IMG/VR virus record: IMGVR_UViG_3300005259_000074
Coordinates: 96,001 to 160,000 of that record
Strand: one strand, 5' to 3'
Origin: a virus
Lineage: Duplodnaviria > Caudoviricetes
Length of the DNA: 64,000 nucleotides
Shown in pieces: positions 5,554-56,194 of the stretch. Under the pieces are notes generated by a model, which was not told the DNA's origin, searched no databases, and was given only the letters and a program-made list of their open reading frames with translations. Position numbers and translations under genes: made by a program. The stretch's first letter is position 1. Each line of letters begins with the position of its first letter.

Positions 5554-5631
5554 CCACCAGTTCAAAAATCTTCTTCTGAGCGGTATATTCAAGAGTTAAT
5601 CCGTTGGACGGTAAAGAATAGAGGAATTGAA
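5554..5631 (+). repeat. dispersed 78-bp intergenic element, copy 1
   Basis: 69/78 identical, ungapped, to 56117..56194 (hand alignment). Confidence 0.9.
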
Positions 5632-5714
5632 ATAGTATTAGTATCATTAAGAGATCGAGAGTACAGAACTACTGAATATTGATTTGGAGATACAGATTCG
5701 CGAAAAATCACGAG

Positions 5715-6353
5715 TCAGTTGAATACTGACGATGCCTGCTCAGAGTGCGAGACTAATTTTACTGACGCTATCATCGGCATGCACCACGTCCAAACTCGGT
5801 GTCTGCGGTAGACTTCTTCAAGCTCTCCGTACTTGTCGGCGTCGATCTTCTTCTCGCACAGTACCTTTCCCAACGACGCTCTGACGTTGTCGTTAGCGCC
5901 GGAGAATGGCGTCCAGTCCAGCTTGACTAATGTGTCGGTGGTGACCACGGGTAACGACGTGGTCTGCGTTACGGTCTGCCAGGTGATCACGTGGTCTAAG
6001 TGGCCGTACTCTCCGAACATGTTGTGGGTGAACACGCAGTCGCAACCGACAGACATAGACGTGATGTTCTTCGATATCTCCGAGAGGATGTCGCTGCGGA
6101 GGCCGTTCCTGTGGTTGACCTTCGCGAACTCGGAGTCGAAGGGGAGCACTCTGCGGTCAGCAGCTCTTATCCCGACTCTGTCGCACACTTCGAAGAGAGC
6201 GTCTTTCCTGTGCGCGCACCACTTCCTAACTGGGTTGTTCTCGTCGCTGGAGCACACTAAGATGCGCTTCTCCACCGTCGGGTCTAACAGCACGGCTGCG
6301 CCGAATATCAGCTCGTCGTCGGGATGAGACACTACGACTAAGACTCTAGACAC
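5715..6353 (-). CDS. PIG-L/LmbE family N-acetylhexosamine deacetylase
   Basis: VVSHPDDELIFG and FTHNMFGEYGHLDH metal-binding motifs. Confidence 0.85.
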   Translation of the reverse strand: MSRVLVVVSHPDDELIFGAAVLLDPTVEKRILVCSSDENNPVRKWCAHRKDALFEVCDRVGIRAADRRVLPFDSEFAKVNHRNGLRSDILSEISKNITSMSVGCDCVFTHNMFGEYGHLDHVITWQTVTQTTSLPVVTTDTLVKLDWTPFSGANDNVRASLGKVLCEKKIDADKYGELEEVYRRHRVWTWCMPMIASVKLVSHSEQASSVFN

Positions 6354-6365
6354 TAACGCACCTCG

Positions 6366-6680
6366 TCAGGAGTTCAACTTCTTCCACGCCGGCTCTGATG
6401 TCCCCTCGTCGAACCTAGCCAGCTCGAGGAGAGCGTACGATATCGTCAGTTCTGCCAACTCAGCGTCTCTGCAGGTGACTAATGCCGCTGGATCCATCTC
6501 GGGGTCGCCGTAGCAGTTGCACGCGAGAATTTTGCCCGCTTCTTCTGCGTCGAAGAACCGCTTGCTGGATGTCAGCGGACACCTGACTACGGAGCACTCG
6601 CAACTGGCTACGATTATCTCGGGATATCCGCACAGAGACATCCAGAGACACGATAAGAATCTGAACAGCTTGAACGCCAT
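6366..6680 (-). CDS. hypothetical protein
   Basis: GAGGA RBS upstream; co-oriented and tightly packed between neighbours. Confidence 0.5.
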   Translation of the reverse strand: MAFKLFRFLSCLWMSLCGYPEIIVASCECSVVRCPLTSSKRFFDAEEAGKILACNCYGDPEMDPAALVTCRDAELAELTISYALLELARFDEGTSEPAWKKLNS

Positions 6681-6727
6681 CGTGAGTCCTCCTCGGTGAC
6701 CGATTATTTACGGTTCCCGAGTCGGAA

Positions 6728-7300
6728 TCACTCCTCGAGTGCTGCTATGAAGTCGAGCGCCTGTACGACGTTGTTCGGGTGGAACACCCAGCGCTTGCCG
6801 CTGACTGACTCGAACCACTGTCTAGCTGTGTTAGTCTTCAGCTCCTTAGACATCGCTTGCCAGTCGGCGACCATCTCGGCGACGGCTTCTACTGGCATCT
6901 CGCGGACTTTTATCATCTTCTCTAGGCGATCGCGGTTCTTCGGGTCGAACACTATCGGGTCCTCGCTGTACGACTCAGGGTGGTGCCTGTTGTTGACCAC
7001 GTGGTGCAGCGTAGCGGCCCTTATAGACTCCTGGAGGTCAGCTGGGATAGCCAGGGGTGTGCCCTCGCGCTTGTTCTTGTACATCCAGTTGACCCACACG
7101 TAAGGTTCCTTCTCCTCTGCGTCGTTCAGCTTGCTGAAGTCGTGCATCCTCGGCATGTTGTCCAAGCCGAACTCGGCTGCCAGTTGCTGGTAGAACTCCT
7201 CGACGTACCCGATGTGCATCTTAGTGCGCGCGTCCGAGTATTTCTGCATCTCCGGTGTGATCTTCAAGTTCAGCGCTTCCATCATCTCTTCGAAAAGCAT
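6728..7300 (-). CDS. HD-like metal-dependent phosphohydrolase (DUF5662-like)
   Basis: TKMH...MHDFSKL...LHHVVNNRHHPE...EMVADWQAMS. Confidence 0.75.
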   Translation of the reverse strand: MLFEEMMEALNLKITPEMQKYSDARTKMHIGYVEEFYQQLAAEFGLDNMPRMHDFSKLNDAEEKEPYVWVNWMYKNKREGTPLAIPADLQESIRAATLHHVVNNRHHPESYSEDPIVFDPKNRDRLEKMIKVREMPVEAVAEMVADWQAMSKELKTNTARQWFESVSGKRWVFHPNNVVQALDFIAALEE

Positions 7301-7321
7301 GATTTCTATTTCCTCTCTGTG

Positions 7322-8188
7322 TTAAAGATCTACGAAATTATCGTAGATCATTGTCTCATAGTTGGTGATTATTAGTTCGTTCAACGCTAGACTATCTTTC
7401 CCATATTTGACTCCTCGACGAGAGTTAATCTTCTGTATGTAGAAATCATAGTATATTTTCTCTATGAAGTCGTCTCCTTCTATGTAAGAATTGCTGATCA
7501 TTGCCGAACATTTTTCGTGTCTTTTCAGACATTTCATCAACCTCAAGTGATCTTCAGGTGAAAATCCGCTTGCGTTATAAGAATCGAACGTCTTATAGTA
7601 CGGTGGATCGCAGTAGATGAATGCTCCATCATCGGCGTGTTTGTCTATGACCGTCTCAAAATCTTCATTCAATATCTCGATACATTCGAACATCGATGAT
7701 AGTTTCCTGATATTGTCTTCTTTAAATATCGTCTCAGATAAATGAGCTCTGTATGAAGAGTTGAACTCCCCTTTTGAGTTGAATCTGAACAATCCACAAT
7801 AACACGTCTTATTTAAAAACATTACTAAAGACGAACTAGCGATGATGTCTTCTTTTTTCAGAGAGTTGAATTCTCTCTTCTTAGAGTTGTAGAATTCGCG
7901 TTTGGATTCTAACGTCCCGCATGCATAGTATTCGTCTCGCAGCTCACGCAATGCGGATATCAGCTCTTCTTTAGAATCTCTTATAGCTATGTAACACGAG
8001 ATTAACATCTTGTTCTTATCGGAGACGACTATTTTTTGAGGATGATACTTTTCTACCACGTCTAATAACACTGAACCAGCTCCGACAAATGGTTCTATAT
8101 AAATGTCTATCTTCTCAGGAAAGTGTTCTCTGAGTTTTGGAAGAAGCTTTCTCTTTCCTCCTAACCACTTTAAAAACGGTTCTGGCAT
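7322..8188 (-). CDS. dam: DNA adenine methyltransferase, Dam/D12 class
   Basis: FLKWLGGKRKLL, YIEPFVGAGSV, FIYCDPPY, C-terminal ELIITNY. Confidence 0.92.
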   Translation of the reverse strand: MPEPFLKWLGGKRKLLPKLREHFPEKIDIYIEPFVGAGSVLLDVVEKYHPQKIVVSDKNKMLISCYIAIRDSKEELISALRELRDEYYACGTLESKREFYNSKKREFNSLKKEDIIASSSLVMFLNKTCYCGLFRFNSKGEFNSSYRAHLSETIFKEDNIRKLSSMFECIEILNEDFETVIDKHADDGAFIYCDPPYYKTFDSYNASGFSPEDHLRLMKCLKRHEKCSAMISNSYIEGDDFIEKIYYDFYIQKINSRRGVKYGKDSLALNELIITNYETMIYDNFVDL

Positions 8189-8533
8189 ATTGTTCTAGAG
8201 TATCTCCAATGTGTAGTCTAATTCTTTGTCTTCCACGAGTTCGCGTGCGTTCACCAGAGTGCATATCCTGATGTGCATGTTTTTCAATCCGGTATCATAC
8301 AGGTGTTGGTGTTCACAACCCACAAATTCTTGGAACTATGAGGAGAACTACGACAGCAATACCTCCACGATTCACCAGCACCGGCTTGACATTCCACTAG
8401 GTTAGCTGCCAGCGTCTTCTCCTCAGCCGCGGCTAGTCCTTCAGTGTTGGGGGTAGTGCTTCTTGAAGTAGTCGTTAGTAAACAACGTCCCGTAGTACTA
8501 GTACCCGCTGTAGTACTTATTGTCAGACATCTC

Positions 8534-8737
8534 TTATTTTTCTTTCATCTCCTCGAGTTGTTTCTTCAGCTTCTCTACCAGCATTCCATTTTCGCACCAG
8601 TCTTCACAGAACAGCTCTCGACAGTGGCAGTAGTACTCCTCGAGCGCTCCTATGCATTCAGACAGCGCTGCTTTGACTCGCTCAGTCCTCCGGAATCTCT
8701 CCTCATCGGGACACATCCATGTCGGTCTGTTCTTCAT
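8534..8737 (-). CDS. small hypothetical protein
   Basis: ATGA-coupled to the upstream micro-gene. Confidence 0.55.
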   Translation of the reverse strand: MKNRPTWMCPDEERFRRTERVKAALSECIGALEEYYCHCRELFCEDWCENGMLVEKLKKQLEEMKEK

Positions 8738-8904
8738 CTTTCGTCTCTCAAGAGCCTTTCGAGTTTCTCGATAGTGTCTTCATCCCAACCTCGCTCTCTG
8801 ACTGATTGCAGGCGTTCTTGGATCATGCCTTCGGTGATGGTGAATTTCTTCCCTCGACAGGCTCTCAACTTGCGTTTGACACTCCTGTTGGTGTTGTGCT
8901 TCAT
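8734..8904 (-). CDS. 56-aa basic hypothetical protein (MKHNTNRSVKRKLR...)
   Basis: Hand-translated; ATGA overlaps on both sides. Confidence 0.55.
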   Translation of the reverse strand: MKHNTNRSVKRKLRACRGKKFTITEGMIQERLQSVRERGWDEDTIEKLERLLRDER

Positions 8905-9080
8905 TCTCTTCCACCATCACACCTGTCTTCTAGTGGGCAGTCGGCCGGAAAACATAGCAGATCTTCACACGACATCTCACTTTCGCGCCGAGAGCAGATG
9001 TGTTCACCCCTCCAGCTCATTATGTTGACTTCGCGAAATGGGCATTTCGCGGGAGATTCGATTGTGTATATCTTAGACAT
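8901..9080 (-). CDS. 59-aa Cys-rich hypothetical protein (MSKIYTIESPAKCPF...)
   Basis: Hand-translated; GAAGAG RBS; coupled to the next gene. Confidence 0.5.
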   Translation of the reverse strand: MSKIYTIESPAKCPFREVNIMSWRGEHICSRRESEMSCEDLLCFPADCPLEDRCDGGRE

Positions 9081-9090
9081 TCACTCTTCT

Positions 9091-9291
9091 TCAGCAGGGT
9101 TTGACGCCCTTCAAGCTCTTGGCTATCTTAGAGCACTCGGGACACGTCGGCTTTCCTCCTGCAGACTCCCACCCGAAGTCGTCTACCGAGTTCCACTTGT
9201 GGCCGCACACGGTGTAGTCGTCCCACGCTTCGTTGACGACGTGCACTATCCCATCAGCGGGGTTCTTGATCAACTTCAGTTTGCTCTTCAC
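9091..9291 (-). CDS. small Zn-finger-like protein
   Basis: H..TVCG...PTCPECSKI. Confidence 0.6.
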   Translation of the reverse strand: MKSKLKLIKNPADGIVHVVNEAWDDYTVCGHKWNSVDDFGWESAGGKPTCPECSKIAKSLKGVKPC

Positions 9292-9310
9292 GTGTAAAGA
9301 CCCCTTATGT

Positions 9311-9604
9311 TTACTCTATTCTTTTCACTCTGTCTACCGAGATGGGCACAAAGACTGAGAACTGCCAACACACCATTCCTTCAGGTGGGTCAAACCCATA
9401 GTTATCTACATGGCTCCCTATTCCCTTTGGCTCGTACTCGACCTCTAGCAGCACTACTCCGAAGCTCTTAGGGAAGGGCTCCGGACTTAGGTAGGTATAT
9501 CTGTATGACGTATGCCCTCTCCTAGGAGTTGGTATTCCCCATAGCACACCCTCGGCTTGTATCTTCTTCCAATTCTCTTCTGTCGTGCGGTGGTAGAACT
9601 TCAT
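9311..9604 (-). CDS. small ADP-ribosyltransferase/Tpt1(KptA)-like fold protein
   Basis: FYHRTT..NW..I..EGV ... R ... YTYLS ... LLEVE pattern recalls YHGT..I..GL..VxLS of the ART/KptA fold. Confidence 0.45.
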   Translation of the reverse strand: MKFYHRTTEENWKKIQAEGVLWGIPTPRRGHTSYRYTYLSPEPFPKSFGVVLLEVEYEPKGIGSHVDNYGFDPPEGMVCWQFSVFVPISVDRVKRIE

Positions 9605-10290
9605 GTTCTACCCTCTAGATAGTGCCTCTTGACGCTATCGTGCCCGGTGTGCAGTATGATCTCGTTCCCACACCCGATGTCTTTCTCGCACACGCAGAAC
9701 TGCGGAGGAAGCGTGTAAGCAGCGAACTCAGTGTTCCACATAGCCCTCCACATAGCAGTTGGCCCTCTCACCGGAGTATTCTCCATGATGGTAAGATACT
9801 CTTCGAGGACTCTTCTAGATTGGTCGTGACAAGTGTTGAATGCTATCGGTGACATGTTCACTGCGTAGCCGCACCCCATCGCTTCTAACAGACCGTCGGA
9901 GTCGGCGCCGACCGTGTTGTCGACCGACACTAAGTGCCTAGCGTTAGCTGGGACTAGCAGGCCGAACTGCTCTGCTAAGTACAGCAGCGATCTGACTCTC
10001 ACCGCATCTACTACTAGCATGTCTGTGTCTACTGCGATCGCTACGTCAGCTTTAGACTCCGCGAGTCCTTTGACTTTGTAGTAGTCGTTGCACCGCCAGC
10101 CGTACCTGGGGTGAGCTCTGTCGTAAGGAGGAATGGCCGTCTTGACGTTGAACTCGGGAGGTCCGTCTCCGAAGTCGTCGGTGTACAGCGTCCAAGACGC
10201 TTCCGGAAAAGCGCTCTTGAAGCTGCTGAAAGACGGTTCGAACGAAGTTGCCCTCCCTCCGAACTGAGCCATCACGAACTCGACTCTCAC
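9601..10290 (-). CDS. GT-A-like glycosyltransferase
   Basis: AIAVDTDML (DxD), WRCNDYYKV, C-terminal ILHTGH; coupled to the neighbouring GTs. Confidence 0.6.
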   Translation of the reverse strand: MRVEFVMAQFGGRATSFEPSFSSFKSAFPEASWTLYTDDFGDGPPEFNVKTAIPPYDRAHPRYGWRCNDYYKVKGLAESKADVAIAVDTDMLVVDAVRVRSLLYLAEQFGLLVPANARHLVSVDNTVGADSDGLLEAMGCGYAVNMSPIAFNTCHDQSRRVLEEYLTIMENTPVRGPTAMWRAMWNTEFAAYTLPPQFCVCEKDIGCGNEIILHTGHDSVKRHYLEGRT

Positions 10291-13634: not shown

Positions 13635-13645
13635 GACACGTCCTG

Positions 13646-16296: not shown

Positions 16297-16321
16297 TTGG
16301 AAAACTCCGGAAGTTGCTCTC

Positions 16322-16357
16322 TATTTATGGCGCATTGGCGCCCAACGCGTGTAAATA
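16322..16357. promoter_or_regulatory. back-to-back divergent late promoters (CATAAATA minus 16322-16329; TGTAAATA plus 16350-16357)
   Basis: Located exactly at the strand switch between gp15 and the portal gene. Confidence 0.65.
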
Positions 16358-16428
16358 CTAACGGCCGAGTTGGCCTATCGTGCAACAGTGTCAGTGACAT
16401 AGAGTTCAAATTAAGAGGAAACGACTGC

Positions 16429-19400
16429 ATGGCTATCATAGGTACCTGGACCTCGAACAACACCCAGCTGTTCGGCGGCATAAAGCGGTTCTCTCACGCG
16501 CAAGCGGAAGCCGGCAACTACAAGCTTCCAGTCTTTGACGAAGTGAAGAGAGACTCCGACGTAGTCTCAGACATGAGCGTTATTGACAAGTACTTCAAGA
16601 ACATGCAGGAGCGAGAGACGTCTGGCGCTTACTGGGATTCTACTTCGTTCGGAAAGTTCTTGTACGCTTCGATCTCGACCAACAAACCAACTAGAGTTGG
16701 CAGCTATCGCCGCATGGCGATGTTCCCGGAGGTCGGAGACGCTATCGACGAGATCTGCGACAACGCGATGGCGTTCGATGAAAACAATAAGATAGTCGCG
16801 TTTAAGCTCAACCGTAAGTTCGACGCCGCGGCCGAGAAGGAGATCAACGCCGCTGCCGAAGAGTACTTGAACTTGTTCAACTTCGAGTCTAACATGTTCG
16901 AGATCATGCGGCAGCTCGTAGTAGAGGGCGAAGTCTGCTGGGAGAACATCATATCCAAAGACCACCCGGACGCGGGCGTCATCGGCATCAACCCCATCCC
17001 ATGCGAGACTTATGATTTCGCTATCGACACTAAAGCTAATAAAAAGACTGGAATAATCATCAACATAGCTTCCTCTGACCAGTCTGCCGACAACAAAGAG
17101 GGCACTGGCAAGAACAACAATAACAAGCGCGTTGTCGGCAACATGTCAGTTGAAACGCTGTCTAGCATAAACAACTTGAGCTCCTACGAGAAGATTAAGA
17201 ACGGTGAAGTGTGCTACATGCCGTTCGAACAGGTGACCTATGCCAACACCGGGCTCATATCTTTCGACGGTCTGATGGTGTACCCCGTGCTGGAGAGGGC
17301 TAGGAAGGCTTACAACCAGCTGTCACTCATCGAAGACTCCATAATCATATACCGTCTCGTCCGCGCTCCGGAGCGCTACGTGTTCAACGTGGACACGGGG
17401 ACTGCTTCTAGGTCTAGGGCCGAACAAGAGGTCCTCAAGATGATGAAGCGGTACAACACCAAGAAGGTGTACAACCCCTCGACGGGGACGACGACGAACG
17501 AGTACGATCCCTGCCTGCTTCTCGAGTGTCTTTCGATGAACACTGGAGTTCCTCTGCTCGACGGAAGAACTCTAACTATCTCTCAGATATCTGACGAAAT
17601 GAACGGTGGAAAGCAACTCTGGGCTTACAGCTTCGATCCTGAGACTGGTAAGTTCGCCCCAGGTAAGATCAGCTGGGCTGGAGTCACGAGAAAAGACGCT
17701 GAAGTGATGAAGATCACTTTCGACAACGACAAGACGATGACAGTCACGCCCGACCACAAGTTCCCGGTATGGGGCAAAGGCAAAGTCGAAGCTAAAGACC
17801 TCGTGATCGGCGACAGCATGATAGCGTTCAACAGGAAAAAAGAGAAGATCACCGCTGAGAAGAATGACTACGAAATGATATACGATCACGCTTCGCAGAA
17901 GTGGATATACACCCACCAGGCTGTCGCAGACTACTTCAAAGGCACGCTGTGTGAGCAATACGTATGGGACGAGGAGAATTTCTCCAAGAACAAGCGCTTC
18001 TCCGTCAGACACCACAAGAACTACGATAAGTCAATGAAAGCCGCGTGGAAGCGTTCGGACAGCATTCGATCTGCTCTCAAGAAGTACAACGATGAAAAAT
18101 GGGCTGATCCTAAGAATAGAGAAAGACTTTCGGCGTGGTACAGCTTCAAGCCTTCTAAGTTGATATTCGACCGCATCACTACCGCAATTGCCGATAAAAG
18201 ATTGGCGTTCATCGATGAAGTAGTAGAATTCTGCAATTCTGATGAGCTGTGCGCAGCTGAATACTCCAGGGTACACACAAGCGTCCACACCGTCGGCGAG
18301 AAGATCAGCAGACAGTACTTGATGATGCTCTCCAAGAATTTTGGATTCGACTCCTTCAGAAGCCTGATCAGAGAGTTCAATCCAACTGCGAAGTTCGTCA
18401 ACCAGAGGACGCTCGATCGTGCTAGACTTCAGAAAAAGTTCGTCTACACGCACGACATGCTCAAGATGCTGATAGACACCGTCAAGGCCAACAGAGACAT
18501 CAAGATGAAGGAATGCGCGGTCATCCTCAAAAATGATCAGCGGTTCATGGAATTGATGGATGAAGCCAACGGTGACAACTCGCAGTACAAGAGAGAAAAA
18601 TTCGGTTGGGGGCACGTGCAGAGCCTCGTTCACTCTTTTGGATACGAAGATTTCAGGTTGTTCCGCAAAGAACTTCAGAACCACAACCACCGCGTAGTGA
18701 AGATCGAGTACCTCTCTCAGAGAGAAGACACTGGCACGCTGGTCATCGACGGAGACAACGAGTTCCACGACTATCACACGTTCGCCACTGATGCTGGAGT
18801 TGCGACATGTAACAGTTTCTGGTTCAGCAAGCCCGCTGGAAGCACTGGAACCACTGTCGACACGTTGTCATCCAGCGTCAACCTCGGCGAGATGAAGGAC
18901 TTAGACTACTTCCTCAGGAAGTTGTACGTCTCTCTCAAGATACCCTACAACAGGTACGCACAGCCGGAGATCAACATCCAACGTGGCGAGCAGATCAACT
19001 ATGAAGAGTATCGCTTTGCGAAGTTCATCATGCGCTTACAGCAGTGCCTCGCAAAGGGCCTCGCCAATGGGCTCATATCTCACCTCCGCTTAAGAGGAGT
19101 CTGGGACCGCTTGAAGTTGCGCAACAGAGATTTCATCGTCCAGTTCACTCCTCCGACCTCGTTCGACATATACGAATCACAGAAGCGCCTCCAACTCATG
19201 ACGGAGCGCTACTCGCTGATGGCGCAGTACCAAGAGATGTCCAAGACTCTCCTCCAGAAGAAGTACCTCGGGTGGACCGAGATAGACGTCGAGGAGAACT
19301 GGCGCTTCCTAGAGGAAGAGCAAATAAAAGCAGCTAAGATCCGCTGGAAGACCATGCAGATAGAGCAGACGGGTAAGGTCGGAAAACCAGGCACAGACCC

Positions 19401-19599
19401 TTACGCTTCCCAGGTCGTGGGTGCCGAGGGTCAGTCTCCAGAAGGACAACAGGGGCAGGAAAACGTGATCCAACCGTCTTCAAGCCAGAGTCAGCCCGGC
19501 CAGTACCCCGGTCTTCCACCTCCGCTACAGGACCACGAGGACGACCAGCAAGGACAAATTAAAGACGATGAGGAAGGGGACGAGAGAGATGTTGAATAA
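16429..19599 (+). CDS. gp20: portal protein (T4 gp20-like) containing an intein
   Basis: YRRMAMFPEVGDAIDEIC, LERARKAYNQL.LIEDSIIIYRLVRAPER.VFNVDTG, LGEMKDLDYF.RKLY..LKIP; AGAGGA RBS before ATG 16429. Confidence 0.95.
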   Translation: MAIIGTWTSNNTQLFGGIKRFSHAQAEAGNYKLPVFDEVKRDSDVVSDMSVIDKYFKNMQERETSGAYWDSTSFGKFLYASISTNKPTRVGSYRRMAMFPEVGDAIDEICDNAMAFDENNKIVAFKLNRKFDAAAEKEINAAAEEYLNLFNFESNMFEIMRQLVVEGEVCWENIISKDHPDAGVIGINPIPCETYDFAIDTKANKKTGIIINIASSDQSADNKEGTGKNNNNKRVVGNMSVETLSSINNLSSYEKIKNGEVCYMPFEQVTYANTGLISFDGLMVYPVLERARKAYNQLSLIEDSIIIYRLVRAPERYVFNVDTGTASRSRAEQEVLKMMKRYNTKKVYNPSTGTTTNEYDPCLLLECLSMNTGVPLLDGRTLTISQISDEMNGGKQLWAYSFDPETGKFAPGKISWAGVTRKDAEVMKITFDNDKTMTVTPDHKFPVWGKGKVEAKDLVIGDSMIAFNRKKEKITAEKNDYEMIYDHASQKWIYTHQAVADYFKGTLCEQYVWDEENFSKNKRFSVRHHKNYDKSMKAAWKRSDSIRSALKKYNDEKWADPKNRERLSAWYSFKPSKLIFDRITTAIADKRLAFIDEVVEFCNSDELCAAEYSRVHTSVHTVGEKISRQYLMMLSKNFGFDSFRSLIREFNPTAKFVNQRTLDRARLQKKFVYTHDMLKMLIDTVKANRDIKMKECAVILKNDQRFMELMDEANGDNSQYKREKFGWGHVQSLVHSFGYEDFRLFRKELQNHNHRVVKIEYLSQREDTGTLVIDGDNEFHDYHTFATDAGVATCNSFWFSKPAGSTGTTVDTLSSSVNLGEMKDLDYFLRKLYVSLKIPYNRYAQPEINIQRGEQINYEEYRFAKFIMRLQQCLAKGLANGLISHLRLRGVWDRLKLRNRDFIVQFTPPTSFDIYESQKRLQLMTERYSLMAQYQEMSKTLLQKKYLGWTEIDVEENWRFLEEEQIKAAKIRWKTMQIEQTGKVGKPGTDPYASQVVGAEGQSPEGQQGQENVIQPSSSQSQPGQYPGLPPPLQDHEDDQQGQIKDDEEGDERDVE
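17527..18813 (+). mobile_element. intein (429 aa) in portal, with degenerate HNH-type endonuclease region
   Basis: Block A CLSMNT.V.L.DG, block B TVTPDHKF, block F DTGTL.IDG..FHDYHTF, end TCN followed by Ser+1; removal restores LLE-SFWF, matching the gp20 (M)LEDYWL motif. Confidence 0.92.
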
Positions 19600-21515: not shown

Positions 21516-22334
21516 ATGGGTAAGTTCGAAGAGCTTTACGAGAGCATCACCGACGATCTGATTTCAGAAGGGAAAGAAAATGCCGGTCTGATGGGTCCTG
21601 ACGGAACTCACAGCATTGGACAGGGTTTCTACGGTCACCACATCGGCGAAGCTATGTTCAAGAAGGCCGGAGGCAAGTTCGTGAAAGTTAATAAGGGTGA
21701 AGGACCGTCTGACGAGCATTCAGGACACAAGAAATTGCTCGCTCAAACCGCAGCAATCGGGGAAGACGACTGGGCCGCGCGTCATAAAATCTACCAACTC
21801 GTCGGAAAAGCTGACGCTCACACTCTGCATAAATTAGCTGATCACAAAAATTTTAATGTTCGGCAAGCAGTTGCTAGCAGCTCCGAAACGCATCCCGACA
21901 CGCTGCGAAAGTTAGCTGACGATAAAAATGAACACGCGCGGAGAGAAGTTCTTATGAATCCTAAGACACCACAAGACGTGCTAAGGAAAGCTGCTAAACA
22001 TCACAGTCAGTACGTTCGATATTACGTAGCAGGGAATCCCAATGCGCATCCTGACGATCTACACAACTTAGCTAATGAGAAAAGTCATCATACAAGAAGT
22101 GAGGTCGCAAGCAATCCTAATACCAGTGAAAAGACTCTTTTGAAATTGGCCGACGACACGAATAATATCGTGAAAACTAACGTGGCTGACCACCCCAACG
22201 CTACTGAAAGAGTGTTGAACGCACTTTTAAAACATAAGAGAGAGGGGAACCAGGACCTAAGTCATGGAAACGTCGAGTTTGCTGTGGATATAGCCAGAAA
22301 GAAACTCAAGAAGAAACTTGAGAAGAAAGATTAA
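21516..22334 (+). CDS. leader + GPxGTH module + LRV/HEAT-like repeat protein
   Basis: MGKFEELYESI; five to six ~24-aa repeats (L.KLA.D....VR..VA.NP.T....L). Confidence 0.75.
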   Translation: MGKFEELYESITDDLISEGKENAGLMGPDGTHSIGQGFYGHHIGEAMFKKAGGKFVKVNKGEGPSDEHSGHKKLLAQTAAIGEDDWAARHKIYQLVGKADAHTLHKLADHKNFNVRQAVASSSETHPDTLRKLADDKNEHARREVLMNPKTPQDVLRKAAKHHSQYVRYYVAGNPNAHPDDLHNLANEKSHHTRSEVASNPNTSEKTLLKLADDTNNIVKTNVADHPNATERVLNALLKHKREGNQDLSHGNVEFAVDIARKKLKKKLEKKD

Positions 22335-34090: not shown

Positions 34091-34756
34091 ATGAAATTTG
34101 ACGTCTTCTGCCGTAAGATAAACGAAGCATCTGCTGTTGGTAAGAAGGTAAAGAACTTATCCAACTCTTCTGAGATGTATGATCCCAATAAACCGAACGA
34201 CAAGCGCGCATTCTTTGACAAATTTGTAGCTGACAACGCAGCTAAAGCTAAATGCAAAGCAGACAAAGAGAAAGAGGAGAAAGTTCCAGAAGTCCAAGAA
34301 CCAGATGAAAATATCCTCAATAACGAGAAGTTAGAAGACAAGAAAAAAGACGTCGCAGAAGAGATCGCTGACCTATTCAAGAAAGCTCTAGATGGTGATA
34401 CTGCTGAGATATTAGACTCAGTGAAAGATTCTGGATTGATAGAGACTATCAAGACTTTCATCAAAGATGTGTACTCTGCGCAAGACGGTGTGCAACCGTC
34501 ATCGAGAATGGTAGCGCTCACCAATATAGAAACGATAGCAGACCAGGTGTCCGACAAGTTAGACGGCATCTTCGCTAACGACAATGTAGAAAACTGGGAC
34601 ACCGGAGAAGGCGAAGACGAGGAAGAAGACTACAGCGGCATTGACTATGACGATAGCGAAGACGACTCCACTGACGACACTGAGGAAGAGGAGCCCGAAG
34701 AAGAAACGGACGACACTGAAGATGATGAAGAGTCTGACGACACTGAGGAAGAGTGA
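34091..34756 (+). CDS. highly acidic protein, prohead-core/scaffold-like
   Basis: MKFDVFCRKINEAS start; D/E-rich C-terminus. Confidence 0.55.
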   Translation: MKFDVFCRKINEASAVGKKVKNLSNSSEMYDPNKPNDKRAFFDKFVADNAAKAKCKADKEKEEKVPEVQEPDENILNNEKLEDKKKDVAEEIADLFKKALDGDTAEILDSVKDSGLIETIKTFIKDVYSAQDGVQPSSRMVALTNIETIADQVSDKLDGIFANDNVENWDTGEGEDEEEDYSGIDYDDSEDDSTDDTEEEEPEEETDDTEDDEESDDTEEE

Positions 34757-46115: not shown

Positions 46116-46144
46116 GATGTAGTGTAACACGTTGGGAGACGTAA

Positions 46145-49546: not shown

Positions 49547-49554
49547 AATAAATA
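49547..49554 (+). promoter_or_regulatory. late promoter AATAAATA
   Basis: In an AT-rich spacer upstream of the HAD gene. Confidence 0.55.
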
Positions 49555-49584
49555 CCCTTAGACAGAATCAACTGCGAGAACATA

Positions 49585-50163
49585 ATGAAATTTTTCGACA
49601 TTTTAACTGAGTTGACTCTCTCAGAGTCTTTCAGTGACAACGCATACGTCTTTGACTTCGACGACACGCTGTTTCACACTGACTGTAAGATAGAGGTTAG
49701 AGACAAGAAGACTGGCGGAGTGGTCAAGCGCTTGTCGTCGGCTCAGTTCAACCACTACAAGTTGGACTCAGGAGAGGAATTCGACTTCTCGGAATTCGAA
49801 GACGTCTCGCGGATAATGGCTGGGAAACCTGCTAAGATGCTCAGAGCTGCGCAGAACATATCTGATGCAGTGACTAGCGGCAAATCCAATAGCGTCATCT
49901 ACGTGGTCACTGCGAGAGCTGGAATGGGGACAGAAGACGCTATAACGTCTGTGTTGAACAAACACGGTGTCTTCGTCAAGCGAGAGAACGTGTACGCGGC
50001 CGGTAACACTGCCAAAGACACTGGGGACATCCCCACTGAGAAGTCTAAGATTGTGAAGAGCATCCGTGAGAGACACGGAGGTAAGATAATGTTCTACGAC
50101 GACAGCTCGGCCAACGTGGCCGCTGTCAAGGATGTCAAAGGCGTCAACGCCAGAAAAGTCTGA
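49585..50163 (+). CDS. HAD-superfamily phosphatase
   Basis: YVFDFDDTLF (motif I), VVTAR (II), K (III), FYDDSSAN (IV). Confidence 0.85.
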   Translation: MKFFDILTELTLSESFSDNAYVFDFDDTLFHTDCKIEVRDKKTGGVVKRLSSAQFNHYKLDSGEEFDFSEFEDVSRIMAGKPAKMLRAAQNISDAVTSGKSNSVIYVVTARAGMGTEDAITSVLNKHGVFVKRENVYAAGNTAKDTGDIPTEKSKIVKSIRERHGGKIMFYDDSSANVAAVKDVKGVNARKV

Positions 50164-51622
50164 GATAGTGTCTACAAAGAGACTGAAACTGGAGAATTTC
50201 GCTTCCGGCCCAGGCGCTAAGCAGTTCGTCTTAACGACTACTTATATGCTCGGATCGGCTGCCATACCCCTGTCTTCCGACGTGTTCTTCGCCGGACAGG
50301 ACGGGTACGCGTTAGAAGCTACTCCGGCGAACGTGTACCAGGGGTATGGCTCAGACTCCACGATATACAGCCAGAACTTCTTCTTCAGAGACTACTCCGT
50401 GATGAATCCGGACGCAGCTCTCAGTGGAGTGGGGCTGACCGTCCGCCCGAACAGAGCCTCAGCTAAAGACTTAGTGCAATTCGGTGACTACTCATTCTTA
50501 TTGACTAACGACACAGTGTCAGGACTGTTCTTCGCTGCGCAAACTACGCCCGACTCGGCTGTCTCAGGATGCGTCAGAGAAGACAACTTAGTGGTGACAT
50601 ACGCCCCTTCAGCTACATCAGACGACCCAGAGATAGACATCATATACAGAGACGTCTCGTTCAACGCCAGCACAGAAGAACCTGACTTGATATTCGCGTC
50701 TCTAGACACATCTGGTTACACTATCTACGTCAAAGACGCAGTGCTGTCTGGAGACTCTGCGTACGCGATCCCGGGGGCGAGTGGCATTCCTTTCGCGTGG
50801 ATGTTAGAGTACGATCTCAAGAACGAAGCTATATTTCCCGAGCCAGCTCAAGTATTCGGAAAAGCTGACGGCACTACTTTCGTATGGAATACACTAGTTA
50901 AAGAAGCTGATGCAGAAGTATATTCACCTAACGCATCAGCAGACACCATATCGAAGATACTGGTGAATCCGTTCGCTCTGAAGAATATGTACAATTACGA
51001 CTGGAACGTTGAGGGAGACAGAGACACCGGAAAATTGACTGGTGTCAGAAACTACGTGAAGTGTGGAAAAGCTCAGAATCAGATGTGGATGAGTTATCGT
51101 TATTTCCGAGATGAAGAAGATGTAACGCAAAACTACGAATACATCGAGAGGACAGCAGGACTCTATAAGTTCCAACCAGCTAATGGTCATAAGAGCAACA
51201 TATACTCAGTGAGGATCAACAACTCGGGGTTAACCGACGATCAGAGAGAACCAACAGAAACGAGGACCGCTAAAGAACAGCTGCGCACTATCATTGAACA
51301 AGTCATCAAAAATGCTGTTAAAAAGATAGCTCCTGTCAACACTCACTTGTGGATGGTCGACTGGAAAGGACAAACGCTCGTTACTCAATCGAGCAGTTCG
51401 TCGAGTAGCAGTTCATCCAGTTCGTTATCTTCTAGCAGCTCTTCAAACAGCTTCAGCTCCAGTTCGTCAAGCAGTTTCAGCAGTAGTTCTAGCAGCTTTT
51501 CGTCGTCTAGCTCGTTCTCGAGCAGTTCTTCGAGCAGTTTCTCATCGTCTAGTTCTTCTGAGAGTTCGTCTAGTAGCTCATCATCCAGTTCTTCTGAGAG
51601 TTCTAGCAGCAGTTCTATTTGA
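50132..51622 (+). CDS. virion structural protein with a 76-residue Ser-rich C-terminal tail
   Basis: IIEQVIKNAVKKIAPVNTHL resembles baseplate-wedge C-termini; the true start may be the GTG at about 50168. Confidence 0.6.
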   Translation: MSKASTPEKSEIVSTKRLKLENFASGPGAKQFVLTTTYMLGSAAIPLSSDVFFAGQDGYALEATPANVYQGYGSDSTIYSQNFFFRDYSVMNPDAALSGVGLTVRPNRASAKDLVQFGDYSFLLTNDTVSGLFFAAQTTPDSAVSGCVREDNLVVTYAPSATSDDPEIDIIYRDVSFNASTEEPDLIFASLDTSGYTIYVKDAVLSGDSAYAIPGASGIPFAWMLEYDLKNEAIFPEPAQVFGKADGTTFVWNTLVKEADAEVYSPNASADTISKILVNPFALKNMYNYDWNVEGDRDTGKLTGVRNYVKCGKAQNQMWMSYRYFRDEEDVTQNYEYIERTAGLYKFQPANGHKSNIYSVRINNSGLTDDQREPTETRTAKEQLRTIIEQVIKNAVKKIAPVNTHLWMVDWKGQTLVTQSSSSSSSSSSSSLSSSSSSNSFSSSSSSSFSSSSSSFSSSSSFSSSSSSSFSSSSSSESSSSSSSSSSSESSSSSSI

Positions 51623-51686
51623 GAATTCAGTAGTGACATACTTCTATGATTTCTAAGACTGTTGCGTGAGTTAGTTTAACAAAAAA

Positions 51687-51694
51687 GATAAATA
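51687..51694 (+). promoter_or_regulatory. late promoter GATAAATA
   Basis: Upstream of the tail-collar gene. Confidence 0.6.
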
Positions 51695-51727
51695 GAGGAT
51701 AACAACACCTCTGGAGGCACTTCTAAC

Positions 51728-52393
51728 ATGTCTATCATCGAAGTCGAACTTAAGACTGTCGCTCCGCGGAAGTGGACTGGAAATTTTGGCCAGTCTGCTC
51801 CGACTATCGACTCTTCTACTGGCGTTAACATAGGAGACATAGCGGTCGACAGCAGCGCCGTGGAGTACGTGTGGACTTGTTTAGATGCTACTACTGGAGC
51901 TCCAGTGTGGCAGAAGATTCTGACGACAACTTATATAACGCAGAATGCTGCTCCAGCTGGAACAGTGAGTTATTTTGCGATGTCTTCACTTCCAACTGGA
52001 TGGTTGGAATGTAACGGAGCTGCAGTCAGCAGGACGACTTACGCTACACTGTTCGCGAACATCAGCACGACTTATGGCGCAGGTGACGGCACTAGCACGT
52101 TTAACTTACCAGACCTCCGGGGTTATTTTCTCCGTGGTTGGGACCATGGCGCAGGTGTCGATACCGGGAGGAACATCGGTACTTCACAACTAGATGGACT
52201 TGCAAGTCACAAACACACTACTACTCATACAACTCACGGTGCCAACAGAGGTGATCCTTCGCCTTATTGGTACGCTGGAGATGGTGATAACTTAGATCCA
52301 TCAACTTTTACTGTCACTTTCTATGAAGCGTCTGGTGGTGGTACAGAGACTCGGCCGAAGAACGTCGCTATGATGACGTGTATAAAGTACTGA
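51728..52393 (+). CDS. short tail fibre with phage tail-collar domain
   Basis: PAGTVSYFA....PTGWLECNGAAVSRTTYA.LF...YGAGDG.STFNLPDLRG.F.RGWD...ETRPKNVA. Confidence 0.9.
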   Translation: MSIIEVELKTVAPRKWTGNFGQSAPTIDSSTGVNIGDIAVDSSAVEYVWTCLDATTGAPVWQKILTTTYITQNAAPAGTVSYFAMSSLPTGWLECNGAAVSRTTYATLFANISTTYGAGDGTSTFNLPDLRGYFLRGWDHGAGVDTGRNIGTSQLDGLASHKHTTTHTTHGANRGDPSPYWYAGDGDNLDPSTFTVTFYEASGGGTETRPKNVAMMTCIKY

Positions 52394-52403
52394 GAGGAAG
52401 CAG

Positions 52404-53138
52404 ATGAGCAACTACAAACTAGCGTATAACTATGATTCACACGGTTTCTACTCCGGCCTCAGCCGGGCGTGGGAATCTCCTCTAGAACCAGGTGTGTATC
52501 ACATCCCCGGAGACTCGACTCTGACAGCCCCTCCTTCGGTTGCCGACGGCGCGATCGCGATGTGGACTGGATCAGCTTGGACTTCTGTAGAAGACAACAG
52601 AGGTAAGACTGCGTACAACGTCAAAGACGCGTCTCAGCAAGCTACAGTGCCAGAAACTAATGTCGTCCCCCTCGGTCTCACCGTCATCACTCCATCTTGT
52701 TCGAAAGAATTATTGAGTTCGTGCTCTTTCGACAGTTCGTCTGGGACGTGGACAGTGGATCCAGTCAAGGGAAGCGCAGCGAAGTACAAGAAGTTGTACT
52801 CGGACATCGACGTGAGGACAGCAGCTATACTGAAAACTGGGATGTCTTATGAGAACCAGATGTTCGCGTGCGACTCTCAGGGTCAGGCCGACGTAACAGC
52901 GCTATACTTGGAGTCTCAAGATACTTCTACGAGCTATCCAATCTCATTCTACAGTGGGACTGCGGTGTGGTCAGCTGCTTCAGCGAGCGATCTCATTGCA
53001 TTCTGCAGATCAGTGAAGGCATTCATCGGCGAAGTCAAAATGAAAGCGCTATCTCTCCGGAAAGAGATAGAACAACAGAGTGGAGAGTCGTACGCCGACT
53101 GGTTCGCTAGACTCCAAACGTGGACTGACCCAAGATAA
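52404..53138 (+). CDS. tail fibre assembly chaperone (Tfa-like, DUF4376-like C-terminus)
   Basis: ESPLEPGVYHIP..ST..APP...W.G..W..VEDNRG. Confidence 0.8.
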   Translation: MSNYKLAYNYDSHGFYSGLSRAWESPLEPGVYHIPGDSTLTAPPSVADGAIAMWTGSAWTSVEDNRGKTAYNVKDASQQATVPETNVVPLGLTVITPSCSKELLSSCSFDSSSGTWTVDPVKGSAAKYKKLYSDIDVRTAAILKTGMSYENQMFACDSQGQADVTALYLESQDTSTSYPISFYSGTAVWSAASASDLIAFCRSVKAFIGEVKMKALSLRKEIEQQSGESYADWFARLQTWTDPR

Positions 53139-53148
53139 GAAGATAAAC

Positions 53149-53700
53149 ATGACGTGGTACATCGGTGTCCCAGGTGGAGTGAAGTGGTTTAAGACCGACG
53201 TAGCTTCTACAGATCCAGCAGCCGCAGGCGGCACTCAGTGGACGAACGTAGACGTCGAAGCCGGCATAGAGCCGCTGGTGTACTACGATGCAGTAGCAGA
53301 CACGTTCGTTGTGCAGGGTGGAGGAGTCGCAGAAGCTGACGGGGTGTACACCATGGACACCGCTCTCAACTACCAGCTGACTGGCGCATTTAGCAGTTCT
53401 TCTAGCTCTTCTTTCAGCTCATCGTCCTCTAGCAGTTCTAGCAGCTTCTCGTCGTCGAGCAGCTCTGAGAGCTCATCGTCGTCGAGCAGCCAGTACAGCA
53501 ACTCGTCGACTTCTGGCAGTTCTCTCCAGCTAGTGATGTGGAGGAAGAGCGGAGCGGGAGTCTACTTAGGGTGCAACACGTATCTTTCTCTGCCGGCGTG
53601 GGCGTCTCTAGACAACTGGTTCTTGTACAGCGGATACTACTACTACTTCTCATACCAGTACATGCTGTATGATTGCTCTGCTTTACCTATCCCACCATAA
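53149..53700 (+). CDS. two-domain protein joined by a poly-Ser linker
   Basis: ATG 53149 follows the previous stop; Ser tract about 53392-53523; aromatic-rich C-terminal domain. Confidence 0.6.
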   Translation: MTWYIGVPGGVKWFKTDVASTDPAAAGGTQWTNVDVEAGIEPLVYYDAVADTFVVQGGGVAEADGVYTMDTALNYQLTGAFSSSSSSSFSSSSSSSSSSFSSSSSSESSSSSSSQYSNSSTSGSSLQLVMWRKSGAGVYLGCNTYLSLPAWASLDNWFLYSGYYYYFSYQYMLYDCSALPIPP

Positions 53701-53709
53701 CCACTCATG

Positions 53710-53717
53710 TATAAATA
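53710..53717 (+). promoter_or_regulatory. late promoter TATAAATA
   Basis: Exact T4 late consensus; heads glycosylation cluster B. Confidence 0.75.
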
Positions 53718-53747
53718 ACACTCGTTATCTAGTGTGGAGTAGCATGT

Positions 53748-54563
53748 ATGAGTGATCTCTTCAAGTTCGACCGATCAGTGTTTGTCGACGTAGACGACAA
53801 ACGAGTGCAGATGTTGTTAGACAGTTCTCTGTCCCAACTAGAATTCATAAAACTCATGAAAAACAGTGATCCTTGGGTAATCTCCAACGGAGAGCTGAAA
53901 CTATTGACTGAAAAAGACATCCAAGCTGGAAAAGACAGCTTCGCAAAATTCAGAAGGGGTGTCATCCAAAAGACAGGTGGAATCACACCTGATCTCATTA
54001 AGACTTATAAAGATCTGATAATCAGTGTATATCCCGAAATGACAATCCATTATGATAACACTGAGAAGGAGATATCAGAATCCGGGTGTCCAGAGTGCGC
54101 AATCAACGGAAAATATGCGAAACTTGTCGAGACTCTTGTGTCTCTAAAACCTGACGGCAGAGATTTGTCAAAGTTATCAATCTTAGGGGACACGCCTCTG
54201 AAGAAACTCAGAGGAGAAGAGATAGACCCATCTACGATAGTGATCGAATACCCAGAGGGAGTCGAGCGCAGCCTCCCGAAGATGAAGACCGGAAATTCGA
54301 AGAGCGCTCCAGCCGGCGTTGTCACAGGCATTTTTCAGAGGCCTTCGTGCAAGCTGTGTGTCGTCAAACACCTCGCGTACGCGTTCGAGTGCCTGAAAGA
54401 AGTAGCGGCGGGATACACACTCGAGCGCGGGCACGACCACTTCGCTCTCGCAGTAGCCAGCCTCGAGCACGCAGAGCAAGAAGCTCTGAAAGACGACGCC
54501 AACTTAGCTGAGAAGATAAGAGACTTCCGGAACAGGCTGGAGTCAAAGGTGTCGTGGAAATGA
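53748..54563 (+). CDS. hypothetical Cys/His-motif protein
   Basis: CPEC and CKLCVVKH...HDH...EH motifs. Confidence 0.6.
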   Translation: MSDLFKFDRSVFVDVDDKRVQMLLDSSLSQLEFIKLMKNSDPWVISNGELKLLTEKDIQAGKDSFAKFRRGVIQKTGGITPDLIKTYKDLIISVYPEMTIHYDNTEKEISESGCPECAINGKYAKLVETLVSLKPDGRDLSKLSILGDTPLKKLRGEEIDPSTIVIEYPEGVERSLPKMKTGNSKSAPAGVVTGIFQRPSCKLCVVKHLAYAFECLKEVAAGYTLERGHDHFALAVASLEHAEQEALKDDANLAEKIRDFRNRLESKVSWK

Positions 54564-55690
54564 ACACCGCAGTCGCGTCCAGAGAGATGCTTGGTGAGCT
54601 GGAGAACCTCTTGACAGAGAGCCAGACCGGCATGGAGTTGGAGATCGGCGACAGAGCGGTGTCCGCTCTGGCTAGCGAAGTTGGAAAGCTGTTCAGAGAC
54701 TCTGCTCTACTTCCGTTCGGAGAGCCGAAGAAGGTGATCCTCGAGAACTACCAGTCTCCCGGAGACTTAGTGATGATGACTGCAGCCGTCAGAGATCTTC
54801 ACAGAGCTTATCCCAACAAGTTTATAACAGACGTTCGCACTTCTTGTGGAGACATCTGGCTCAACAACCCCCACATAACTCACATAGACGACAAAGACCC
54901 AAAGGCGATAAGAATCAAAGCTGAATACCCGCTGATACACCAGAGCAACGGTGGGGCGCTCCCCTTCATACACGGTTTCGCGCAAGACCTCGCTGATAAA
55001 CTAGGAATCCCGCGGTTCCCCATCACAAAGTTCGCAGGGGACATCCACATATCTCCTCAGGAGAACTCGTGGTACAGCGCTCCTTGGGAGATATTAGGGA
55101 AAGATGTCCCGTACTGGGTCATAGACGCTGGATACAAGACCGACTTTACCTGCAAGAACTGGGGAAAGAAGAACTGGCAGCAGCTCATCGAGATGTGCCC
55201 AGAGATACAGTTCGTCCAGATCGGCCACAAAGACCACATCCACCCGAAATTGACTGGTGACAACGTGATAGACTTAGTTGGGAAGACAGACACTCGCCAG
55301 CTGATCAGGCTGATCTACAACTCGTTCGGAGTCGTGACGCCGTGCAGCTTCCCGTTCGTGCTGGCGTACAGCGTGCCTCCGCACCCGCGGTTCAAGCGGA
55401 AGTCTAGGCCGTGCGTAGTCGTCGCCGGTGGTCGAGAACCCGTCGAATGGCAGCAAGCGCCGAACGTGATGTTCATGCACACCTGCGGAGCGCTCCCGTG
55501 CTGCGACTACGGTGGGTGCTGGGTCAGCCGCGTCAAACCCCTGGGAGACGGAGACCACAAAGACAAGAACACCTGCCTCCACCCAGTCGCTTGGGGCGAT
55601 GAGTTCATACCGCGGTGCATGCAGATGATCAGAGCTGACCACGTGGCTTACTGGATAGAGACTACGACAGAGGAGCTGGACTTCAAGTGA
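54554..55690 (+). CDS. GT9-like (heptosyltransferase-fold) glycosyltransferase
   Basis: SPGDLVMMTAAVRDL..AYP...DV...IW.NNPHI, K.W....WQ.L, IDLVGKT..RQL. Confidence 0.8.
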   Translation: MEMNTAVASREMLGELENLLTESQTGMELEIGDRAVSALASEVGKLFRDSALLPFGEPKKVILENYQSPGDLVMMTAAVRDLHRAYPNKFITDVRTSCGDIWLNNPHITHIDDKDPKAIRIKAEYPLIHQSNGGALPFIHGFAQDLADKLGIPRFPITKFAGDIHISPQENSWYSAPWEILGKDVPYWVIDAGYKTDFTCKNWGKKNWQQLIEMCPEIQFVQIGHKDHIHPKLTGDNVIDLVGKTDTRQLIRLIYNSFGVVTPCSFPFVLAYSVPPHPRFKRKSRPCVVVAGGREPVEWQQAPNVMFMHTCGALPCCDYGGCWVSRVKPLGDGDHKDKNTCLHPVAWGDEFIPRCMQMIRADHVAYWIETTTEELDFK

Positions 55691-55977
55691 GGTACGAGTG
55701 CGCTATCTGCGGCTACGCGAGCGACGAACGGAGTCGCGTGCACGAGCACCACATCACTCCGCGCGCTTCCGGAGGCACTGAAGACAAGTGGAACAAAGTC
55801 GTGCTCTGCCCGAACTGCCACGCTAGAGTTCACGTCCCTGGAATGACGCACGGCATCCACTCGGTCGTCAGAGAAGACTCGATAGTGATAAACTGCTGGA
55901 GGAACGACCACACGCTGCTAGAGTGGAGACTGGCTGGCAGTGACGTCTTGGCGTACACTCCACACAAGACGCTCTAG
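55687..55977 (+). CDS. small HNH endonuclease
   Basis: CAICG...HEHHI.....GGT....N...LCPNCHARVH. Confidence 0.85.
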   Translation: MRYECAICGYASDERSRVHEHHITPRASGGTEDKWNKVVLCPNCHARVHVPGMTHGIHSVVREDSIVINCWRNDHTLLEWRLAGSDVLAYTPHKTL

Positions 55978-56116
55978 AACGTGTTTGCGAGGGTTCTGAG
56001 AAGGAGGAAGATGCGAGTCAGTGGTTACCGTTGTCGGAACGATGAAAGTGATCTGCGCCGCTGGAATGAACTTAACAAACTCAAAGATAGTTCACAGTAT
56101 CTGTTAAGTGCTCTGA

Positions 56117-56194
56117 CCACCAGTTCAAAAATCTTCATCTGAGCAGTATTTTCAAGAGTTAATCCAGAGGACGGTTAAGAATAAAGGAGTTGAA
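56117..56194 (+). repeat. dispersed 78-bp intergenic element, copy 2
   Basis: 69/78 identical to 5554..5631. Confidence 0.9.

Follow-up and report, generated by a model that had tools for sequence, protein, structure and literature searches.

A strand-specific, promoter-like non-coding cassette in three intergenic gaps of a distantly T4-like phage genome, with candidate replication-origin function

The stretch of DNA analysed here (the window, 64,000 nucleotides) comprises bases 96001-160000 of the 262,470-bp virus record IMGVR_UViG_3300005259_000074, the genome of a distantly T4-like phage, and carries in two of its long intergenic gaps a homologous non-coding cassette that we tentatively read as a replication origin. 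A preliminary description of the window had recorded a repeat of 78 bp present twice, and both of these copies were confirmed, aligning without gaps at 69 of 78 positions (88%). A whole-genome search added a third copy outside the window, at genome positions 231111-231188 on the + strand, 79 kb past copy 2. With all filters off, a profile of the copies run against the 262 kb gave three matches, each with E ~1e-26, while the next best match had E >2, so that the repeat lies far beyond chance. The components of the two window copies are as follows, in window positions; L008, L009, L010, L011 and L015 denote loci in relatives of the phage.

5554-5631, + strand: copy 1 block A, 78 bp, 69/78 to copy 2; orthologues in L011 and L015; an island of ~80% identity in a poorly conserved gap.
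5561-5589, + strand: copy 1 promoter-like core, TTCAAA, 17-nt spacer, TATATT; 9/12 in a consensus scan.
5632-5714, + strand: copy 1 tail, GC 0.34, purine 0.61, C 0.12; one degenerate iteron, AGTATCATT, one GATC, and block B, GATTCGCGAAAAAT, near 5695-5708.
56117-56194, + strand: copy 2 block A, 78 bp; orthologues in L008, L009 and L010; an island of 85% identity.
56124-56152, + strand: copy 2 promoter-like core, TTCAAA at 56124-56129, spacer at 56130-56146 and TATTTT at 56147-56152, in the same register as copy 1.
56195-56340, + strand: copy 2 tail, GC 0.26, reaching the start of the 275-amino-acid (aa) gene; TTGA(T)TCAA palindromes and two GATC.
Starts at 56202, 56226, 56251, 56277 and 56301, + strand: copy 2 iterons, five AGTAWACAWT at a spacing of 24-26 bp.

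All three copies lie on the + strand. As had been described, the flanking genes of the two window copies run in opposite directions and the gaps are long: copy 1 occupies a 400-bp gap between - strand genes, and copy 2 a 363-bp gap (55978-56340) between + strand genes. Copy 3 has a - strand orphan gene of 371 aa on one side and the 3' end of the - strand uvsW gene on the other. Copies 1 and 3 thus point into the 3' ends of convergent genes, without a gene of their own to express, and copy 2 alone is followed by a co-oriented gene. The earlier placement of both copies inside glycosylation clusters holds for copy 1, whose neighbours match Glyco_trans_1_2 and PIG-L. It is not supported for copy 2, where neither the flanking 378-aa and 275-aa proteins nor the neighbouring 271-aa and 313-aa proteins gave a Pfam or NCBIfam match. 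The neighbouring features in the window are these.

4439-5314, - strand: glycosyltransferase-like gene, left of copy 1 (Glyco_trans_1_2, 1.2e-08).
5715-6353, - strand: PIG-L/LmbE deacetylase gene, whose 3' end meets the copy 1 tail and which converges with the putative + strand transcript.
5730-5714, - strand: terminator-like hairpin beside the 3' end of the PIG-L gene.
55687-55977, + strand: HNH endonuclease gene of 96 aa, directly upstream of copy 2 (Pfam HNH, 1.1e-08); syntenic in L008, L009 and L010.
56341-57168, + strand: the 275-aa gene without a family match, downstream of copy 2.

Reading the anatomy from seven aligned sequences plus one strain variant, we found that the repeated unit exceeds the 78 bp originally noted (block A), since it extends through a tail to a second short conserved block (block B) ~55-90 nt downstream. 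The cassette begins with a conserved 12-mer, CACCAGTTCAAA, which holds a -35-like TTCAAA, and continues with a 17-nt segment that is constant in length and the most variable part of the whole. An invariant GTAT then opens a -10-like TAT(A/T)TT, and behind it stand ~45 conserved bases composed of TCAAGAGTTAATC, a variable triplet and GACGGTTAAGAATAGAGGAATTGAA. The tail, 55-145 bp long, is poorly conserved in sequence and constant in composition. Within it, zero to five AGTAWACAWT iterons follow block A at a fixed offset and a spacing of 23-26 bp: five in copy 2, four in L015, three in L011, one degenerate iteron each in copy 1 and L009, and none in copy 3 and L008. At copy 2-type loci, in three lineages, the short block B, GAT(A/T)CGCG..AAA, immediately precedes the ribosome-binding site and ATG of the 275-aa gene; at copies 1 and 3 the next feature after it is the stop codon of the convergent gene.

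Relatives were found via the neighbouring proteins only, not via the sequence of the element. The flanking proteins have relatives of 69-84% identity in other metagenomes, on contigs that keep both the gene order and the long gaps. At the copy 2 locus the element is present in L008, from Joint Genome Institute (JGI) sample 3300033121, and in L009 and L010, from European Nucleotide Archive (ENA) samples (BUCK21/GROS21); at the copy 1 locus it is present in L011, from the same JGI sample as L008, and in L015, from an ENA sample. Sliding identity at these orthologous loci is 80-85% over the element, 5-50% over the rest of the gaps and 60-95% over the flanking genes. Since the element is kept as an island of identity at orthologous loci, the sequence comparison indicates that the duplication predates these lineages and that the element is under purifying selection. 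The paralogues are 84-88% alike, as against 83% for orthologues, and some spacer features are specific to a genome whereas the small variable triplet is specific to a locus, a pattern which suggests partial concerted evolution of the copies. For the 371-aa neighbour of copy 3 no relative was found, and hence no orthologue of copy 3 was reached; more distant relatives of the 275-aa gene, at ~35% identity, have neither gap nor element. Searches of viral, metagenome and genome contig collections with two exact core patterns gave no match. An AT-rich 17-mer modelled on the distant relatives hit 35 viral contigs, which proved on re-scoring to be chance matches.

The same loci offered two observations on the neighbouring genes. 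The HNH gene overlaps the stop of the upstream 378-aa gene and occupies this place in three lineages (L008 9332-9622; L009 969-1259); being kept at one place, it behaves, as judged from its position, like a resident gene rather than a homing element that arrived recently. At copy 1, the 50 bases upstream of the start of the glycosyltransferase-like gene (5314, - strand; window 5300-5360) are 82-95% identical to L011, above most of the gene itself, and this stretch is probably a promoter or leader.

We also examined the open reading frames (ORFs) that had been described as reading into both copies and stopping at the same TGA. Both exist, as ..TSSKIFF* (5511-5579) and ..TSSKIFI* (55981 or 56011 to 56142), and the copy 2 ORF does have an ATG after AAGGAGG, at 56011-56013 and not, as given earlier, at 56013. 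The shared TGA is however incidental: neither copy 3 nor the relatives have it, and beyond the repeat the two ORFs bear no relation to each other, so that the ORFs too are to be taken as incidental. In addition, the small ORF at 55981-56142 (+ strand) and one at 9653-9808 of L008 share an N-terminal stretch, ..DE.DLR.WN... A 1-nt indel puts these two ORFs in different frames through the element, and the corresponding ORF of L009 has 14 codons; this ORF of the copy 2 gap is probably spurious, or else a gene in decay.

Nucleotide conservation of this kind could in principle reflect a protein or a structured RNA. A decayed fragment or live mini-gene of a protein would have some basis in a frame, PPVQKSSSE(R/Q)Y(I/F)QELI..TVKN(R/K)G, that runs through all three copies, is open across block A in these and in L008 and L011, and lies in a 45-aa ORF at copy 1 (5545-5682). 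Yet the variable columns fall 8/11/9 over the codon positions, with no third-position rhythm in any frame; a start codon is found in copy 1 only, the frame being closed in copies 2 and 3 by a stop zero to four codons upstream; in L009 it is interrupted by a TAA and has lost 2 nt, and in L015 2 nt are inserted and 3 nt deleted; and neither tblastn of the peptides nor a profile search found a paralogous or parent gene in the genome. Having inspected three reading frames, we reject coding as far as sequence analysis goes, and of all the explanations considered a protein is the least probable. The element was rightly called non-coding, being conserved at orthologous loci without a codon rhythm, and it is not the decayed gene fragment lacking conservation in relatives that would have spoken against the original proposal. 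Conservation at the nucleotide level without coding would equally suit a small structured RNA gene (a transfer RNA (tRNA)-like RNA, a riboswitch-like RNA or a ribozyme), and both a 6-bp hairpin, UUAAUC/GGUUAA, and a pairing of UUCCUC with GAGGAA can be drawn. In these hand-drawn helices 85% of cells are paired, with a single compensatory change, a result matched by 261 of 500 shuffles. There were zero Rfam matches, either at the gathering score or at E up to 5, and ARAGORN found no tRNA in the window, the 29 tRNA genes of the phage genome all lying outside it. Either strand and the putative transcripts fold no better than shuffled sequence (z +1.2 to -2.0), the putative + strand transcripts being weakly folded (z -0.03 to -2.0). 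The suggested covariation check, made with RNAalifold on seven sequences and therefore of low power, returned 0 consensus pairs. A small RNA of the structured type, one of the candidates first put forward, accordingly finds no support in any of these analyses, and we regard it as very improbable.

What the conserved parts do resemble is a promoter. All three copies and five relatives have the layout TTCAAA-17-TAT(A/T)TT, at a match of 8-9/12, and no indel falls between the -35-like and -10-like blocks in the seven sequences. In two wastewater runs we found eight strain differences, all at 56130-56145 within the copy 2 spacer, whereas the copy 2-specific flanks are nearly identical. So many changes in 16 nt beside near-unchanged flanks point to a short conversion patch between copies. 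Compared in this way, the sequences show a spacer apparently free in sequence and fixed in length, and the strain-variant spacer is the best single piece of evidence for the predicted promoter. Close strains live in wastewater, where libraries of two studies contain short contigs that match the copy 2 locus (window 54500-57500) exactly or at 90-99%; as the sequences of these runs are contigs of ~151 nt, they have no power to show strand, transcription or ends. One contig from an RNA library spans 56004-56154 at 100% identity and is likewise uninformative on all three.

The phage also possesses a separate family of early promoters, (ATTTCCC)TTTACA-N17-TATATT followed by a conserved leader, GA.T.CCATTA.GGGAAC, one of which drives the 371-aa gene left of copy 3.

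Genome 37044, 82419, 94040 and 235058, + strand: early-promoter cassettes, TTTACA-N17-TATATT.
Genome 230905, 33983 and 29799, - strand: early-promoter cassettes, TTTACA-N17-TATATT.

Given these promoters, the -10 word and the spacing of the repeated cassettes fit local usage. On the minus strand of the cassettes TTGAAT or TTGAAA is present without a usable -10, and a naive logo anchored on the -10-like words gave no signal. A + strand terminator-like hairpin was not found in or beside copies 1-3. T4-type late promoters, TATAAATA, precede several structural genes of the phage, and this word does not occur in the cassettes. It occurs 11 times in the whole genome, among others at window 34052, 53710 and 58713 (+ strand), 30-40 nt before the gene starts at 34091, 53748 and 58749.

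Downstream of the promoter-like core, the tails are distinguished by composition. On the + strand their GC is 0.26-0.38 (genome mean 0.49), their purine content 0.54-0.67 and their C content 0.10-0.15, values at or beyond the 5th or 95th genome percentile in most copies, and this is true of paralogues and orthologues whose tail sequences differ. When stability is calculated from nearest-neighbour energies, no 60-bp or 100-bp duplex in the 262-kb genome is less stable than the copy 2 tail, the copy 1 tail ranks 13-16, and copy 3 falls in the top 0.5-1% of windows.

Of the candidates listed in the preliminary description, a replication origin core fits these features best, not as a bare core but as a T4-type cassette of promoter and unwinding element. 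The reading that we favour, to which we would give somewhat less than an even chance, is that the cassettes are replication origins of the T4 oriF/oriG/oriE type that are homologous to each other. In its favour are the common orientation of the three putative promoters, the lack of a gene to express at two of them, and the ease with which the DNA directly beyond them would melt. Early in infection, host RNA polymerase would start at the sigma-70-type promoter of the cassette; the transcript, rich in purines and largely unstructured, would remain paired with the tail, which melts easily, and from this R-loop rightward leading-strand synthesis would be primed. The three cassettes would thus be origins of the oriF/oriG type with oriE-like iterons, and they probably exchange short patches by recombination. 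The helicase encoded beside copy 3 is a UvsW homologue (best solved relative T4 UvsW, 8e-28), with uvsY just beyond, and in T4 UvsW is the helicase that unwinds origin R-loops (PMC3016281). The uvsY and uvsW homologues are adjacent and co-oriented here (genome 231272-233100, - strand; L003 and L051), while in T4 the two genes are convergent.

Several observations weigh against an origin. The -35 match is only 4/6; the consensus scan called copy 1 (9/12), whereas copies 2 and 3, at 8/12, fall below the threshold of the tool; and TATTTA, without the key last T, stands in the two most distant relatives. No member of the MotCF, MotA_activ or AsiA families was found in the genome at E up to 1, and the -30 region is CACCAGTTCAAA, without a Mot box, so that the cassettes would not be middle-mode promoters of the T4 kind. 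The instability of the copy 1 tail is equalled at about a dozen further places in the genome, and intergenic DNA is generally AT-rich. That three copies should share one strand has a chance of one in four. GC and AT skew follow gene direction, with nothing at the sites, and the origin mapping by GC skew that had been recommended is thus uninformative. The positional parallel with T4 rests on one clear case, uvsW, and it is from sequence that we infer promoter activity, R-loop formation and priming. Finally, the 45 bases past the -10 and block B are strictly conserved, which the T4 model does not explain. Because T4 origins have no common motif and swappable unwinding elements, this conservation suggests that the cassettes either involve a sequence-specific step absent from the T4 model or serve another function.

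The main rival reading is a promoter-plus-leader cassette without a replication role, which we lean towards regarding as unlikely. Copy 2 would then provide an extra, early promoter and a long 5' leader for the operon of the 275-aa gene, and the RNAs made at copies 1 and 3 would be non-coding, either entering the 3' ends of PIG-L and uvsW in antisense (delaying UvsW, for example) or acting in trans via the conserved 45-nt 5' segment. The promoter-like layout and the confinement of variation to the spacer fit this equally well. Copy 3 does converge on uvsW; block B stands just before the start of the 275-aa gene at the copy 2-type loci of three lineages; and a conserved transcribed segment is easier to account for in an RNA that is recognised by sequence than in an R-loop. 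This explanation nevertheless leaves the evenly spaced iterons and the easily melted tails unexplained, neither a conserved structure nor a + strand terminator was found at copies 1 and 3, and no extended complement of the conserved leader words is found elsewhere in the genome. A further reading is a promoter-independent DNA-binding platform in which a phage protein binds block A, the iterons and block B; it might be an initiator of the iteron type, a regulator, or a protein for partition or condensation. The direct repeats every 24-25 bp at a fixed offset from block A, the perfect TTGA(T)TCAA palindromes and GATC sites of the copy 2 tail, and the conserved blocks split by variable segments of fixed length would all suit it. 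However, the absence of iterons from copy 3 and L008 and the single degenerate one in copy 1 make the array dispensable, there is no candidate binding protein, and the orientation on one strand and the strand-asymmetric composition of the tails suggest a transcribed element; we consider a platform of this kind improbable. The copies do recombine, as the replacement of a spacer patch in a close strain and the genome-specific spacer similarity of paralogues show, and an HNH gene lies beside copy 2. Both would suit the footprint or recombination site of a mobile cassette (a miniature inverted-repeat transposable element (MITE), the flank of a homing endonuclease or a shuffling repeat of the PeSL kind discussed below). 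But all relatives keep the HNH gene in synteny, copies 1 and 3 have no such gene beside them, no target duplication is seen in the aligned flanks, and there is no stem-loop terminator as in PeSLs. Terminal inverted repeats are 5 bp at most (TTCAA/TTGAA) and positions have been stable since the lineages diverged, which makes a recent mobile footprint, also among the original candidates, unlikely; the mobile explanation as a whole we hold to have only a very small likelihood. Structured RNA, coding remnant and mobile footprint carry, even jointly, little probability.

If the cassettes are origins, the proposal can be taken one step further, in a form that we put forward with considerable reserve and think rather doubtful. 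In an uncultured lineage of jumbo T4-like phages, replication may begin at a few homologous cassettes that form a small family, each made up of a promoter, a transcribed signal of ~45 nt, optional iterons and an unwinding tail, with short-patch recombination keeping the copies alike. The transcribed signal and block B would then be recognition or processing sites for R-loop formation or primer maturation, sites of a kind that T4's own origins are not known to have. Apart from any such function, the cassettes serve as a warning for annotation: the long gaps of jumbo phages hold conserved, strand-specific non-coding units on which gene callers overlay spurious small ORFs.

The genome itself yielded further observations. 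Its T4-like affinity is seen in portal, baseplate and gp15-type genes, with a portal <31% identical to the portals of cyanophages and other T4-like phages. The portal gene (window 16297-19599, + strand; 1100 aa) is matched by the portal profile in two separated stretches, and its orthologue in L011 gives Portal_T4, Intein_splicing and Portal_T4 in order; from the two-part match and this domain order, the gene probably carries an intein. Genes on opposite strands share the N-terminus M(S/G)KFEELYES.., which is encoded by near-identical stretches of 31-37 nt at window 2770-2800, 3411-3447 and 21516-21546. The phage proteins are also recorded on a contig of 313,637 bp, as compared with the 262,470 bp of the virus record, which is classed 'provirus'; the ~51 kb trimmed from the record may be phage DNA or host DNA.

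Comparison with known systems places the cassettes closest to the origins of T4. Of mobile elements of the MITE or transposon type they show none of the inverted repeats, target duplications or variable sites, having a 5-bp pair only and loci that are fixed in relatives. With the iteron origins of plasmids and lambdoid phages they share evenly spaced repeats beside the least stable DNA and GATC sites; unlike these, they have no adjacent initiator gene, the repeats are missing from some copies, and the conserved part is a promoter-like block. In the PeSL cassettes of T4-type phages a strong early promoter is coupled to a stem-loop terminator; they occur in large numbers within hyperplastic regions and face the same way as their genes (Arbiol et al. 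2010, PMC2839356). Both kinds of cassette are intergenic, dispersed and homologous, recombine among themselves and bear a promoter, a predicted one in the present case, but here there are three copies, with no stem-loop and a weaker -35, and copies 1 and 3 oppose their neighbours; TTTACA-N17-TATATT with its leader forms a separate PeSL-like family in this phage.

In T4, oriF (ori-uvsY) and oriG (ori-34) are R-loop origins, and oriE combines an early-type promoter with evenly spaced direct repeats (PMC3016281). In the T4 RefSeq record one direction, (-), is given for all three of these origins; the primer RNA of oriE is the complement of the gene 5 transcript, that of oriF is the same as the uvsY transcript, and that of oriG is opposite to gene 34. 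The oriF origin is situated at uvsY, ~0.9 kb from the uvsW 3' end, toward which it fires. The likeness to oriF and oriG thus extends to units of ~100 bp in which a promoter with a sigma-70-type -10 precedes an A+T-rich unwinding element, to which all three tails correspond just downstream of the predicted promoter. It extends also to a transcript, putative here, that is gene-less and antisense, as at oriG, or shared with a gene, as at oriF, to a single direction, and to one unit near uvsW/uvsY. The T4 promoters of oriF and oriG differ in being MotA-dependent middle promoters, for which the present cassettes lack the features. Like oriE, the cassettes have a putative promoter that would need no phage factor and, at copy 2, L011 and L015 but not at copy 3 or L008, evenly spaced direct repeats, the oriE primer RNA being antisense to a late gene. 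No counterpart of RepEA or RepEB, which belong to oriE, came to light, and no search aimed at one was made. The oriE iterons are 12-nt and the role of T4's own iterons is unproven, whereas the iterons here are ~10 nt with a period of 24-25 bp, are optional (0-5 per copy) and lie in another sequence context. The T4 origins share almost no sequence; the cassettes, whose function is predicted, share 78 bp and a second block, including ~45 bases past the -10. T4 origins stayed undefined for decades, partly because they have no common motif (PMC3016281). If our reading is correct, the homologous copies described here would show which features of such an origin matter, namely the promoter box, the spacing, the transcribed signal, the iterons and the closing block.

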